A DNA stretch of 39,238 bases from a bacterium (GTDB taxonomy: Bacteria > Zhuqueibacterota > Zhuqueibacteria > Oceanimicrobiales > Oceanimicrobiaceae), in contig JBHHXN010000029.1 of assembly GCA_046757025.1 (NCBI GenBank), positions 1 to 39,238 on the forward strand. The letters run 5' to 3'. The notes beneath the pieces are model-generated. The model was given only the letters and a program-made list of their open reading frames with translations, ran no database searches and had not been told where the DNA came from. Made by a program: the position numbers and the translations under genes. Shown here one piece after another: positions 993-15,906 of this stretch (positions are counted from its first letter, which is position 1; each line of letters begins with the position of its first letter).

Positions 993-1009
993 TTGGCATG
1001 GGGATTGCT
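993..1009 (+). promoter_or_regulatory. sigma54 (RpoN) -24/-12 promoter
   Basis: TTGGCATGGGGATTGCT matches TGGCAY-N5-TTGCW with exact GG-N10-GC spacing. Confidence 0.65.
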
Positions 1010-1152: not shown

Positions 1153-1222
1153 ATAAAAAAGCTCAATGAGAGCAGCAACTCTCATCGAGCTGGCATAAAA
1201 GGTTGGATAGACCTCTTAAGGT
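1153..1222 (-). ncRNA. Candidate ~70-nt two-hairpin small RNA, antisense to the susC leader
   Basis: Minus strand: AAGAGGT-ctatcca-ACCTTTT hairpin, then GCTCGATGAGAG-ttgctg-CTCTCATTGAGC-TTTTTT terminator; both stems have G-U pairs only on the minus strand; dedicated promoter upstream. Confidence 0.6.
1155..1191 (-). terminator. Intrinsic terminator of the candidate sRNA
   Basis: 12-13 bp stem (1161-1172 / 1179-1190), 6-nt loop, U6 tract on the minus strand. Confidence 0.7.
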
Positions 1223-1228
1223 AAAAAC

Positions 1229-1257
1229 AATATAATACTTTTCACTCACAATTGCAA
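1229..1257 (-). promoter_or_regulatory. sigma70-type promoter for the candidate sRNA
   Basis: Minus strand TTGCAA (1257-1252), 17-nt spacer, TATATT (1234-1229). Confidence 0.6.
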
Positions 1258-1284
1258 GAATTATCTCACCTCTACCCTACCTTT

Positions 1285-1302
1285 TGTGCCAATCTTGGCA
1301 CA
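1285..1302. promoter_or_regulatory. Palindromic operator-like site
   Basis: TGTGCCAA-TC-TTGGCACA with perfect 8-bp arms; same 18-bp geometry as the boxes at 890-928. Confidence 0.5.
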
Positions 1303-1664
1303 CATACCCGGTCAAATTTTTATCCCACTTGTATAACCACTTTCAATGTCGTGCAATTTTATCCATTCTAATGGTGATACAAAATCCTCGGTGCCAAAGG
1401 AATCACCAGTCTCTGTTTTTTTTAATAATAGGGCTTTGAATTTCCAGATGGGATTTCTGTTTTAGATAAAAAACGGCCGGTACTACAACAGACTGCAAGC
1501 AGAATAAACGTTCGGACTAGTAATAACCCGGTTCGTTCGTTCCCATTGACTGAGCAAAATTTTAGGCAATTCGATGCCCAATTTTTTACAGCGACTTTTG
1601 AGTCCACGCATCGTAGCAATACATTTTCATTAAAAACTGAGTTGTTTAAAACTGAAAGGAGGCA

Positions 1665-1700
1665 ATGATGATGATGTGCGTATGTTTTGACACTTCTTAA
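1665..1700 (+). other. Possible leader peptide MMMMCVCFDTS
   Basis: AAAGGAGG at 1655-1662 followed by ATG ATG ATG ATG TGC GTA TGT TTT GAC ACT TCT TAA, ending 91 nt before susC. Confidence 0.3.
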
Positions 1701-1791: not shown

Positions 1792-4647
1792 ATGTTATCT
1801 TTCAATTCCAGAAAGTGTCTGTTACACGGAGCTTTCACTCATTTTATTCTACTACTTTTATTTCTGGGTCTGTTCGCCGCCAAAAATTTTGCGAATGCAC
1901 AGACAAATGGCACCATTACGGGCACGATCATCGATGATCGCACCGGGGAAGCCTTACCTGGTACCAACGTTTTTATTAAAGGCACCACTCTTGGTTCGGC
2001 AGCAGACCTGGAAGGTACGTTCACTGTTCGCAACGTACCGCCGGGCAATTACACGCTCATTGCGGCCTTCGTCGGTTATCATTCACAGGAAATATCCGTG
2101 AACGTGGTGGCCAACGAAGAAACCAGGGTTAATTTTTCATTGAAGATCAGCGCCCTGCAGATGGACGAAATCGTGGTGACGGGCACCGGTTACGAGCTCA
2201 AGAAAAAAGAGCTGACCACCGCCATCGCCACTATTAATTCGGATGAAATCGAAGCCTCGCCGGTAGAATCCATCGATCATCTGCTGCAAGGCCGGATTGC
2301 TGGTGGTTCGGTGAACATGAATTCTGGCTCACCCGGCACCGGCACCCGCATTCGCTTGCGCGGCATCACCAGCGCCAACGCCAGTCTGACTCCGGTCATC
2401 TATATCGACGGTGTGCGCGTGGACAACAATGACAACTTCCGTCTCGAACAGCAGACCGGCGGCCTGCAAACCAGCGTTTTATCAGACATCCTGATTGGCG
2501 ACATTGAGCGCATCGAAGTTACCAAAGGCGGGGCCGCATCCACTTTATACGGATCGGAAGCGGCCAGTGGGGTTATCCAGATTTTCACTAAAAAAGGCAA
2601 AGCCGGCAAAGCCAAAGCCACCTTCAAAGTCGAGCAAGGTGTCAACTCACCGGAAACCAAATTCGTCATCGAAGATTTCACCAAAGACGAAGTACTTAGC
2701 AGCGGCTACTACCAAAAGTACTCGGCTTCTCTGGATGGCGGAAGCGAAAAACTTACCTATCATCTCAGCGGTCATGTGCTGGACTCCGAGGGCGTACTGC
2801 CAAAAAACGATGAAACTCAGTACTCGTTTCGCGCCGGCGTGCGCACATTCCCGGCTGAAAAATTTCAGATCGACTTCTCTGCCGGACTGATCAGAGACGA
2901 TTATGAAAGAATGTTCAACAACAACGCCATCGCTGACCTGTATGGAACTATCGAAGGTTTTGATTCGCAATTTTTCGGACCCAACGTCACCGACGAAGAA
3001 AGAAAAACGCTGGTTCGGGAATATTCTCTCCCGAATTTAACTTATGCTGTCAATCGCTTCAATTTCGGCACCACCGCATCCTGGGATCCCATCAAGTATT
3101 TTTCTACGCGTTTGACCCTGGGAATGGATTACCGCAAAAACGAAGAGCGCCAGTTCATTCCCATCGAAGCCGAAATTGTCACCAGTACTCCGGGCGGCGG
3201 ACTCTTCCGCTCGGACCGGGAATTTTTAACCTTGACCATCGATTACGCCGGTACCATCAAGTACCCGATGGAAGGCCCCATTACATCGACCTTCACCGTG
3301 GGCGGCCAGGGCTTTCGAGAAGAAGATCGCGAAAGTCAGGTTTCAGCCACGAGTTTCGGCCTGCCCGGCACAGACGATTTTGATAACGCCGCCAACCTCG
3401 CTCCTCTGGAATCAAATCAGGAAATATTCAGCGGTGGTTTCTATTTCAATGAGCAGCTCGGTTTATGGAACAAATTGTTCCTAAATGCCGGCGTTCGTTT
3501 TGATGGCAACACGGCTTTCGGCGACGAGGTGGATCTGGAGGCCTTCCCAAAATTCGGCGCCGCTTACAATATTTCTGATGAAGCTTTCTGGCAGAAATTG
3601 CCCTGGAACGACATCCTGAATCAACTCAAATTCCGCTTCTCCTGGGGCAAGACCGGCAGTTTCCCGAATCCTTTTACACGGGACAAAACCTTCACGCAAG
3701 GCGCTTTTTTACAGGGCGTGGCGGTAAACTTCGGCAACCCGGGCGACGCCAGTTTAGCGCCGGAAAAAACCCGCACCATCGAAGTCGGTTTGGACGCCGC
3801 GCTGTTAAATGACCGCATTGGCGTCGAGTTCACGGTGTTCGATGAAAAAACCACCGACGCCTTATTCCGCGTGCCCAGCCAGCCCGCGACCGGCCTGGGT
3901 TTCCAACTGCGCAACGTCGGCACCATTGAAAACGACGGCATCGAACTGGCCATCAACGCAACGGTGATAGAATCCCGAAATTTCCGATTCTCTCTGCGCG
4001 GCTCCTATTCGACCCTGGACAACGAAGTGACCAGCCTGGGCGGTGCACAGCCCTTCAGCTCAGGCGGATTCGGTTTCCTCCCACAACGTGTGGAAGAAGG
4101 ACACCCTGTGGGTGTGTTCCGCACAAACAAACCGGTGCCCAATCCAGAGACTGGCGAATTGGACGGTGATTTCGATACGGTGTTTGAATTTTCTCCAACT
4201 GCTGACAAATACTATTCCATCTCAGCGAATTTCACCATCTTTCGCAATCTGGAATTGTCGGTTCTGGGTGACGGCCAGAGCGGCGCCAATATCTTGAACA
4301 CGGGATCGGTCATTCGTTTCTTCAACGGCGGAGAACCTCAGGCCAGCAAAGTCCCTGCGAATTATTCATTCTTTACAGCCTCACATGTGTTTGTAGAAGA
4401 CGCCAGTTATTTCAAAATTCGTGAAATTAACGCGTCCTACAGATTGCCGCAAAAATACTTTGGCACGCAGTTAACGTTTTTCGCCAACATTCGAAACGTC
4501 CTCACGTTTGCCGATAATGACGATCTCGATCCCGAATTGCATGGCATCACCAATTTTAACGCCACTTCCACCGACGTGGGCGGATTAAATTTCTTTACCC
4601 TTCCAGCACCCCGTCAATTCCGATTTGGCGTATTGGTTGGACTCTAA
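1792..4647 (+). CDS. SusC/RagA-family TonB-dependent outer membrane receptor
   Basis: Signal peptide, CarboxypepD_reg-like N-domain (GEALPGTNV), TonB box region (MDEIVVTG), plug (PVIYIDGV...IERIEVTKG.AASTLYG..AASGVIQIFTKKG), SusC-type motifs EDASYFKIREI and terminal PRQFRFG. Confidence 0.95.
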   Translation: MLSFNSRKCLLHGAFTHFILLLLFLGLFAAKNFANAQTNGTITGTIIDDRTGEALPGTNVFIKGTTLGSAADLEGTFTVRNVPPGNYTLIAAFVGYHSQEISVNVVANEETRVNFSLKISALQMDEIVVTGTGYELKKKELTTAIATINSDEIEASPVESIDHLLQGRIAGGSVNMNSGSPGTGTRIRLRGITSANASLTPVIYIDGVRVDNNDNFRLEQQTGGLQTSVLSDILIGDIERIEVTKGGAASTLYGSEAASGVIQIFTKKGKAGKAKATFKVEQGVNSPETKFVIEDFTKDEVLSSGYYQKYSASLDGGSEKLTYHLSGHVLDSEGVLPKNDETQYSFRAGVRTFPAEKFQIDFSAGLIRDDYERMFNNNAIADLYGTIEGFDSQFFGPNVTDEERKTLVREYSLPNLTYAVNRFNFGTTASWDPIKYFSTRLTLGMDYRKNEERQFIPIEAEIVTSTPGGGLFRSDREFLTLTIDYAGTIKYPMEGPITSTFTVGGQGFREEDRESQVSATSFGLPGTDDFDNAANLAPLESNQEIFSGGFYFNEQLGLWNKLFLNAGVRFDGNTAFGDEVDLEAFPKFGAAYNISDEAFWQKLPWNDILNQLKFRFSWGKTGSFPNPFTRDKTFTQGAFLQGVAVNFGNPGDASLAPEKTRTIEVGLDAALLNDRIGVEFTVFDEKTTDALFRVPSQPATGLGFQLRNVGTIENDGIELAINATVIESRNFRFSLRGSYSTLDNEVTSLGGAQPFSSGGFGFLPQRVEEGHPVGVFRTNKPVPNPETGELDGDFDTVFEFSPTADKYYSISANFTIFRNLELSVLGDGQSGANILNTGSVIRFFNGGEPQASKVPANYSFFTASHVFVEDASYFKIREINASYRLPQKYFGTQLTFFANIRNVLTFADNDDLDPELHGITNFNATSTDVGGLNFFTLPAPRQFRFGVLVGL

Positions 4648-4804: not shown

Positions 4805-6232
4805 ATGAATAAATTCAAAGCAAGCTGGGTGTGCACTTTCGTCATCGGGTGCACAATCCTGGCATTCTCAATGAACGGTTGTGATTTTTTGAATCCAACC
4901 GACGTAAGAAACCCGCAGACCACCGAAGAAAGTCTGGAAAGCGGCGGTACCGGCGCGTCCGGACCATTTTTAAATGGCGTAGCATTCCGTTATTCGGACG
5001 CCATTGAAGACATTTCCTACTTCACCGATGTGGTTTCCGACAACTACGACAACGTCGCGACCTTCATTTCGCCGGAGGCGGATTTTCCCAGAAACATGCG
5101 TCCCAGCGATCTCACTTTAAATGGCGGCGGCGGACCCTATTTTGAAGTTCAGGAGCTGCGTTCATTAGCTGATTTTACCATCACCGGTGTGATTCCAAAT
5201 GACGCGCAAGCCACGCCGGATGACCTGGCTGAAGCGCTGTTCTACCGCGGTATGTCCAATCTGCTGGCCGGCGAAAACTTCAGCGCCGTACCCACAGAAG
5301 AAAACGGCCCACTGGTTCCTTCCGAACAGTTGCTGCAATTGGCTGTAGCCGATTTTACCGAAGCGCTGAATACCAGTCAGCATTCCGGATTTGAAGCGCG
5401 CATTCACATCGTGAAAGCACGCGCTTACCGACTACTTGGCGACAAAGCCAACGCCGAGGTGGAAGCCAACGCCGCGTTGGGGGCGGCTTCCCCTGATTTT
5501 GTTTTCCCGGCGCAGTTTGACGCAGCAAACAACATCAATTCAGCTTACAACTTTGCCGTGAGCCGGGCTTTAAACGACGTCCAGCCCTTACCGCGTTTGG
5601 ATTTTCTCGATCCCAAATATCTGGATCGTGATTCGCCCATTGCCTCGGTAAAAATGGAAGAAGCGCATCTGATTTTAGCAGAAGCCGCGCTTTCGAACGG
5701 CGACAACGCCGGCGCCGTGGGGCATCTGGTCAACGCCATCAACCTGGCCAAAAGCCGCGGCACCTCCTCCTTTGTGGATGACGATCCCCGCGAGTTGCGG
5801 CCGCAAGCCGGCACTGTACAAGCGGGGCCGAGTGCGTCTGCAATCTCAGGATTGATTCTTCCTCGCAGCGGGCTGCTGGTGCAGGTGCCTACGATTTCTG
5901 GCAGCAGTCTCAACGCGGCAGCGGTCAGCGCCCTGACCGATCCGGCGGAGATTTTTTACACGCTCTACCTCGCACGGCAAGAGATCTTTTTCTACGAAGG
6001 CCGGCGCATGAGCGATCTCGGCATTAAACTACCTATCATGAACCGTGAAATCGAAACCAATACCAACATCAATGCCGGAGATCTGGGGACGGTGGCCGTG
6101 GTGCCCGACTACATCCCGGCCGAAGACGGTTTGGACGCTTTCACCTTTGATGGCAGCAACACCGTCATCAGCGTGGACATGAACCAGGTGCTGACGGACA
6201 ACCGAATTTCGCCCTTCAGCATGCCATTTTAG
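4805..6232 (+). CDS. SusD/RagB-like outer membrane lipoprotein
   Basis: Lipobox MNGC-DFL, AEALFYRG, EEAHLILAEA, RQEIFFYEGRRMSD (SusD ER.E..EG.R..D-like); directly follows susC. Confidence 0.85.
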   Translation: MNKFKASWVCTFVIGCTILAFSMNGCDFLNPTDVRNPQTTEESLESGGTGASGPFLNGVAFRYSDAIEDISYFTDVVSDNYDNVATFISPEADFPRNMRPSDLTLNGGGGPYFEVQELRSLADFTITGVIPNDAQATPDDLAEALFYRGMSNLLAGENFSAVPTEENGPLVPSEQLLQLAVADFTEALNTSQHSGFEARIHIVKARAYRLLGDKANAEVEANAALGAASPDFVFPAQFDAANNINSAYNFAVSRALNDVQPLPRLDFLDPKYLDRDSPIASVKMEEAHLILAEAALSNGDNAGAVGHLVNAINLAKSRGTSSFVDDDPRELRPQAGTVQAGPSASAISGLILPRSGLLVQVPTISGSSLNAAAVSALTDPAEIFYTLYLARQEIFFYEGRRMSDLGIKLPIMNREIETNTNINAGDLGTVAVVPDYIPAEDGLDAFTFDGSNTVISVDMNQVLTDNRISPFSMPF

Positions 6233-6338
6233 TTTATTCGAGTTTTTCTCGTTTAATGTATCCAGGTTGCCCGCATATTCTTTTGAATCTGTGGGCAATT
6301 TTATTTTTTTTCAGATTATTTTATTCGAGGAGATTAAC

Positions 6339-6728
6339 ATGCGCTCGTTACTAATCTTGTTATTAAGTTTCGTTTTCATCAATGCCTGCTCATCCACTTC
6401 GAAAAGCCGCAGCCAAAGCCAGGATAAATATGTGATCACCAACGAAGTCATTACAAATTCCAGCGCCACCAATGCGTTCGAAATCATTCAGCAACACCGT
6501 CCCCAGTGGTTTATTCGGATTCCTTCCCGGGGCACCAAATCCCTTTACACCGACGATGCCTCTCACCCGGTCGTCTATATGAACGACGTTCGGCGCGGCA
6601 AAATCGAGACGCTGCGCCAGATTTCGAGCCAGGCCGTCAAGGAGATTCGCTACCTGAAACCGCGGGAAGCCTCGTTGCGATTCGGTCTGGGGCACACCGG
6701 CGGCGCGATTCTGTTGAAAATGAAATAG
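6339..6728 (+). CDS. Small lipoprotein consisting of a stand-alone TonB-receptor plug-like domain
   Basis: Start moved to ATG 6339 (GAGGAG SD); lipobox INAC-SS; PVVYMNDVR...VKEIRYLK.REASLRFG.GHTGGAI parallels plug motifs. Confidence 0.8.
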   Translation: MRSLLILLLSFVFINACSSTSKSRSQSQDKYVITNEVITNSSATNAFEIIQQHRPQWFIRIPSRGTKSLYTDDASHPVVYMNDVRRGKIETLRQISSQAVKEIRYLKPREASLRFGLGHTGGAILLKMK

Positions 6729-15832: not shown

Positions 15833-15906
15833 TAGCGGTGCAGGGACTCGAACCCCGGACACGTGGATTATGATTCCACTGCTCTAGCCGACTGAGCTAC
15901 ACCGCC
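15833..15906 (-). tRNA. tRNA-Met(CAT), probably elongator
   Basis: GGCGGTGTAGCTCAGTCGGCTAGAGCA-GTGGA-ATCATAA-TCCAC-GTGTCCGGGGTTCGAGTCCCTGCACCGCTA cloverleaf; G1-U72 pair; followed by CCT rather than CCA. Confidence 0.95.

Follow-up and report, generated by a model that had tools for sequence, protein, structure and literature searches.

A putative family of antisense RNAs, paired with a co-varying helix in the leader, ahead of a susC-type operon and other genes

A unit on the minus strand of the window (the whole stretch of DNA analysed here, 39,238 nt) very probably gives rise to an antisense RNA, and the unit is conserved ahead of a variety of genes in related genomes. On sequence evidence, we regard it as a real and uncatalogued family of antisense RNAs that is accompanied by a co-varying helix in the sense leader. 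This helix is formed by a 21-bp inverted repeat, with arms A and B, that flanks the antisense promoter and was missed in an earlier reading of the same DNA. We propose that the RNA, of about 70 nt, would pair with the leader of a susC operon, break the A:B helix and likely lower expression of the operon, a model on which our own judgement is evenly balanced. The features on which the analysis is built are the following, with positions in the window:

994..1009, plus strand: predicted sigma-54 (-24/-12) promoter of the susC operon, a motif match whose start site would be near 1022
1155..1223, minus strand: predicted antisense RNA of about 68-70 nt, with ends placed from the -10 box and the U-tract
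1191-1155, minus strand: intrinsic terminator, with a 14-pair stem (1191-1160) and U6 (1160-1155); 97.7% of alignment cells paired, two-sided changes at 10 of 12 modelled pairs
1191..1211, plus strand: arm A; its copy in the sense leader is complementary to the loop, 3' arm and linker of the small RNA
1218-1196, minus strand: hairpin 1 of the antisense RNA, loop CUAUCCA at 1210-1204; 8 pairs in the fold, two-sided changes at 7 of 7 modelled pairs
1257-1229, minus strand: antisense RNA promoter, sigma-70-type, TTGCAA-17-TATATT, a motif match conserved in 53 of 57 members
1260..1345, plus strand: tract rich in C and poor in G (28 C, 7 G) that includes arm B, a candidate Rho loading site
1271..1291, plus strand: arm B, 18 of 21 positions complementary to A and its predicted partner in the sense leader
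1665..1700, plus strand: 11-codon upstream ORF behind a strong Shine-Dalgarno (1655-1700 with it)
1792..4647, plus strand: SusC/RagA-family TonB-dependent transporter of 951 aa (TIGR04056, 429.8 bits; cut-off 368.25), the likely regulated gene
4805..6232, plus strand: 475-aa lipoprotein-like partner in the susD position, with no Pfam or NCBIfam match

The antisense RNA and its family

The preliminary description of this DNA had placed a self-contained small RNA gene in the susC leader, with a minus-strand promoter, a hairpin exposing a CUAUCCA loop, a terminator ending in U6 and no convincing ORF in its ~70 nt. All of these elements are present, with both stems longer than described: the hairpin folds with 8 pairs instead of 7, and the terminator stem comprises 14 pairs instead of 12-13 bp. 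The sole overlapping ORF on the minus strand encodes 28 aa from a GTG at 1249, and thus begins in the promoter spacer, 5' of the predicted start site of the RNA. Taken alone, the promoter match is at chance level, with 4 promoter-like sites in the region around the unit against 5.1 expected; across the family, a TTG-16/17-TA..T box occupies the same place in 53 of the 57 full-length members checked, with a spacer of 17 nt in 50 of them. In folding predictions, the minus strand of the 73-nt unit reaches -29.0 kcal/mol (z = -5.86), a value equalled by none of 200 shuffles, and the plus strand folds more weakly (-22.9, z = -4.0). A plus-strand TAGACC-17-TATAAT promoter at 1208-1236 was also considered and dropped, as it is not conserved in the aligned homologs.

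A second copy of the unit was found in the source genome by a search with the loop, and relatives were recovered by BLAST. A first covariance model, built from 6 sequences, returned 44 matches in 25 of the 125 genomes of the class, distributed over 3 of its 15 families; two of these matches are partial and carry no promoter or U-tract. The refined model, with 25-30 candidates scored per genome and misses therefore possible, placed the family in 21 of 151 genomes; the 42 that represent 11 further families, beyond the class set, had no match. Further, all of 15 metagenome loci score as family members. In the 44-sequence alignment, itself made by fitting to the model, minus-strand pairing extends to 94.8% of cells, compared with at most 57% in slid controls, and 17 of 19 pairs show two-sided (compensatory) changes, a number reached by none of 500 shuffles, which ignore kinship. 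G-U pairs are frequent on the minus strand, so that the strand assignment originally drawn from such pairs in a single sequence holds family-wide, and the covariation among homologs on which the preliminary description had placed its test is found. The conserved promoter box and the paired, co-varying alignment thus constitute strong evidence, at the level of sequence, for a selected RNA on this strand.

The unit had been described as matching no recognised family, and this is sustained by the Rfam search, which gave no match at the gathering score either in the window or in 20 homologous loci. The 6A RNA (RF02925) was rejected as a candidate, with 23.9 bits in the window against a gathering threshold of 41.2 and none of the 125 genomes over the cut-off; other Rfam matches near the unit were sub-threshold only, and the sole Rfam match in the window is a tRNA gene at 15833-15906 on the minus strand. 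A genome-wide repeat, the outcome that would have counted against the preliminary description, was likewise rejected, there being just two copies in the source genome. No match to the unit was obtained in a plasmid collection or among viral contigs, a phage collection gave two short matches only (E 0.1-0.4), and three other susC-ortholog regions (L045-L047, one of which ends before its leader) gave none at E < 0.3. No description of the family was found in searches of openly accessible papers, supplements (such as the motif tables of PMC5737381) excepted. Two units stand in tandem before one gene in loci L058 (1501-1825) and L127 (1497-1874). In other contigs from the same vent runs (X2-X4), the terminator and arm A, corresponding to 1151-1202 of the window, recur in diverged form.

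Sense promoters and downstream genes

The predicted sense promoters, where recognised, lie upstream of the unit, which would make the small RNA antisense to the 5' portion of the downstream gene's message. Within 200 nt upstream, the gene strand bears a sigma-54 motif in 14 of 44 loci, each time before a transporter operon, versus none of 44 controls, which agrees with the earlier placement of the unit inside the susC leader; the other 30 loci have no such motif, and in many loci no sense promoter was recognised. The source genome carries rpoN together with 50 sigma-54 activator-domain matches, 46 of them near full length. Among its 28 SusC/TonB-like loci, a sigma-54 motif is present within up to 1000 nt in five, and the RNA unit in one. 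In two loci of the family the sigma-54 motif lies 8-11 nt before the A-tract, and in five integrase loci a -10-like TATACT stands 14-15 nt before it; the 5' ends of those mRNAs would consequently fall opposite the 3' end of the small RNA.

In nearly all of the loci listed, a gene starts on the opposite strand beyond the antisense promoter. Among these neighbours are transporter operons with a DUF4397 lipoprotein at their head, eight tyrosine-integrase-like genes and UpxY-like genes, as assigned by checking one example of each of these types in family libraries and the rest by resemblance of their translations; other genes with signal-peptide-like starts also follow the unit. The unit that had been associated with susC does precede susC in the window, and it is not susC-specific. 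Similarly, the susC name is borne out by the family match, and the 'susD' label rests on position, given that its product matches no Pfam or NCBIfam entry. The closest named relatives of this partner lipoprotein are labelled KSB1 or Calditrichaeota, in line with the non-Bacteroidota host that had been surmised, which is likely.

Several additional observations were made on these neighbourhoods. Integrase-linked units occur several per genome (3 in G037 and 4 in G122; loci L082-L088, L090 and L092) and are 65-90% identical in DNA across the integrase region, and so suggest a small mobile element. In loci L079 and L091 the unit precedes a NusG/UpxY-like gene followed by polysaccharide-export-like ORFs. 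The susC-type leaders (the window, L055, L127, L137 and L069) have a strong Shine-Dalgarno and an ORF of 4-11 codons between the unit and susC; several of these short ORFs end in D/N-S-like residues, and a second layer of control through them is possible. In the window, two 153-aa lipoprotein-like ORFs with no Pfam or NCBIfam match (216-677 and 6267-6728, plus strand) flank the susC pair, and a likely starch-use cluster extends over 16310-39053 on the plus strand, with genes for a LacI regulator, a second TonB-type receptor, a PorV-like protein, CBM20, a sodium:solute symporter and alpha-amylase.

The inverted repeat and folding of the sense leader

The A/B inverted repeat is significant in 32 of the 41 scored loci (3 were skipped), and nine show no significant repeat. 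In 30 loci dereplicated at 70%, each B arm pairs better with its own A than with those of other loci (-22.7 vs -16.3 kcal/mol), a difference attained in none of 20,000 permutations, which ignore kinship; with row and column (composition) effects removed, the own pair is still better in 27 of the 30. Within the 11-pair core of the helix, 4 pairs show two-sided changes across 16 loci. The polarity of wobble pairs gives no clear choice of strand, with 24 on the gene strand against 20 on the small-RNA strand (14 against 7 in the core); of 32 loci, 20 have the more stable duplex on the small-RNA strand. Furthermore, A and B differ from each other by central indels, amounting to 70 gap columns in 32 alignments.

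In the predicted fold of the window sense leader, the A:B core pairs form with a probability of 0.9-1.0. When the small-RNA region is blocked, 1260-1284 become mostly unpaired and the 3' end of B forms a short hairpin at 1285-1302, which has no U-tract and is therefore not an intrinsic terminator of the pT181 type; by inspection, no induced intrinsic terminator was consistent across 36 loci. Rho loading sites are characterised by unstructured RNA that is rich in C and poor in G. Within 1260-1345, the best 80-nt segment has an excess of C over G of 21, and an excess of at least 17 in either direction is found in 1.0% of 74,358 genome segments. Among 23 repeat-bearing loci, the 30 nt after B hold more C than G in 18 and less in one, with a mean of +3.4 against +0.09 at 317 control promoters, this bias being a proxy for a Rho site; seven repeat-less loci kept out of that count were positive in two cases and negative in five. 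The source genome encodes Rho, with two Rho-like genes of 419 and 405 aa (G000:C31 13033-13257 and G000:C19 28629-28844). Hfq, CsrA and ProQ were not found in this genome, which is 94.8% complete, and a candidate CsrA site (a GGA loop on the sense strand) was dropped as no CsrA was found.

An effect on the ribosome-binding site was also assessed. Of 34 loci, 15 showed a rise of more than 1 kcal/mol in the cost of opening this site when A was blocked, and two a fall, in a test that used automatic start codons, at least two of them wrong (G002 and G113). With curated starts, B matched its own site better than those of other loci in 16 short leaders (p = 0.024), 4 of which individually pass a shuffle test at 0.05. 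The 20 long leaders gave no specific match of this kind (p = 0.36), and the susC start in the window was not occluded when A was blocked, the opening cost passing from 7.9 to 7.0 kcal/mol.

Proposed mechanism, alternatives and known systems

The folding, the C-rich bias, the presence of Rho and the unaffected susC start lead us to favour an antisense-triggered switch with Rho as its likely output at this locus. Beyond the antisense unit, the inverted repeat, the co-variation of both and the C-rich tract, which are observed in the sequence, the steps would be as follows. A sigma-54 transcript from about 1022 would read through the unit, fold A:B and hide the C-rich tract, this being the ON state; pairing of the small RNA with 1155-1223 would then free B. 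In the 770-nt leader of the window, freed B and its C-rich flank may load Rho and cause termination before susC, and in some short-leader loci freed B may instead pair with the ribosome-binding site, these two outputs being the least secure steps. Under this scheme, induced transcription would have to rise above a threshold set by the steady production of the small RNA. That the small RNA acts through A:B seems to us rather probable, and Rho as the output at the window locus plausible, though somewhat short of probable. Only tentatively do we suggest a portable antisense-switch cassette of ~140 bp, carried before tyrosine integrases and recruited time and again by chromosomal genes of this lineage. 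In such a cassette, a cis-antisense RNA would displace a co-evolving leader helix and thereby unmask a Rho site, and in short leaders the module would be rewired to occlusion of the ribosome site.

Repression could also proceed with no structural relay, by collision between convergent promoters or decay of the full duplex, A:B then serving for mRNA stability only. The predicted promoters do converge, the overlap provides full complementarity, and both the nine repeat-less loci and the absence of a folding effect on the susC start would suit such a scheme; nevertheless, it leaves unexplained why B tracks exactly the loop, arm and linker of the small RNA, and why a C-rich tract follows B, and we consider it unlikely. 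Less probable again is a switch of the opposite sign, where A:B would be inhibitory and the small RNA would activate the downstream gene. This would accommodate the lack of a direct folding output at the window and the slightly lower opening cost there with A blocked (7.9 to 7.0), but the shift across loci is toward occlusion (15 versus 2 of 34), and freed B exposes a C-rich single strand. Marginally less probable than the inverted sign, in our judgement, is an RNA that works mainly in trans, its pyrimidine-rich loop and arm being directed at the ribosome-binding regions of other genes. The loop resembles an anti-Shine-Dalgarno sequence and matches the start region of the neighbour gene in two short-leader loci; against this, the search of the genome gave no second target (5 motif matches versus 3 for the reversed control, the four others lying inside ORFs), neither Hfq nor ProQ was found in the 94.8% complete genome, and the loop co-varies with the local B arm.

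The layout is also that of a textbook invertible promoter, bounded by inverted repeats and caught in an OFF orientation facing a terminator, in the company of SusC, UpxY-like and tyrosine-recombinase neighbours. It appears very improbable, however, as no inverted copy was encountered: a promoter-independent pattern gave 33 matches in 125 genomes, 17 being known units in the same orientation and, of the other 16, the 15 that were examined including no unit. Four sets of DNA contigs (depth about 7-13), which as contigs drop rare variants, contained no inversion joints; moreover, the two arms differ by central indels, and hairpin 1 displays covariation of the RNA type. We give an equally small chance to a guide RNA that would pair with DNA at B, just upstream of its own promoter, jointly with an unknown protein and much as dCas12f-sigmaE does. 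The RNA does match B in the same sense, wobbles show no clear strand polarity, and PMC13472631 describes dCas12f guides that target sites upstream of susCD. On the other side, a Cas12f/TnpB domain (PF07282) was not found in the 94.8% complete genome, the B-matching segment is internal instead of 3'-terminal and bulges are common in the match, and no partner gene stands out, since neighbours vary between loci.

An antisense-triggered leader switch, our preferred reading, would offer a concrete and testable model for the action of antisense RNAs ahead of susC genes, and suggests that chromosomal operons for nutrient uptake, placed behind sigma-54 promoters, are gated by counter-transcript switches of a kind known from plasmids. 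The family itself adds a structured RNA with covariation support to a lineage for which our literature searches found no study of RNA regulation. As the unit is small, stands before unrelated genes and comes with natural co-variants of A and B, it makes a ready set for reporter tests, and possibly for orthogonal regulatory parts.

Regarding known systems, the analogy to cis-antisense RNAs of Bacteroides polysaccharide utilization loci, drawn in the preliminary description, is incomplete, and the co-varying inverted repeat points beyond it, to a structural switch of the pT181/pSK41 type. DonS-type RNAs, in the passages available from PMC7366714 and PMC13750123, are short, divergent from a susC homolog and 78-128 nt in length. 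The unit studied here is also short and divergent from a susC homolog, but its predicted length is 68-70 nt, the lineage and promoter types differ, it is not restricted to susC, and those passages on DonS mention no co-varying leader helix. In dCas12f-sigmaE (PMC13472631), an RNA likewise matches DNA upstream of susCD, through a 3'-terminal guide and a Cas12f protein, neither of which is seen here. The attenuators that unmask a Rut site, CsrA-pgaA among them, hide a Rho site in a leader hairpin until a ligand restructures the leader (PMC12360218); here the trigger would be a cis-antisense RNA, and CsrA was not found in the genome. Within the consulted table rows of that article, sRNAs unmask by blocking translation or else antiterminate, and none acts by a cis-antisense leader switch.

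The proposed switch would work in the way of counter-transcripts of plasmids. RNAI of pSK41 (PMC5703833) is an RNA of ~83 nt with two stem-loops, complementary to a region ~100 nt upstream of the start, that induces sequestration of the ribosome-binding site. It may correspond to the short-leader members of the family, unlike the window locus, which shows no site occlusion; it controls plasmid copy number, in contrast to the unit described here, and the unit has no Rfam or plasmid match. In pT181 (RNAI) and pIP501 (RNAIII), according to PMC5703833, a short counter-transcript is directed to an untranslated leader whose 'pre-emptor' holds a downstream arm in a helix until it is displaced by binding of the antisense RNA. 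In those plasmids, an intrinsic terminator then arises from the released arm in front of the rep gene, whereas here no U-tailed hairpin is formed, the predicted output is Rho loading, and the targets are transporter, integrase and UpxY-like genes with no plasmid match. Shared with both is the arrangement itself, namely a counter-transcript within an untranslated leader, predicted here from promoter motifs, and a competing, pre-emptor-like helix, represented by the predicted and co-varying A:B pair.
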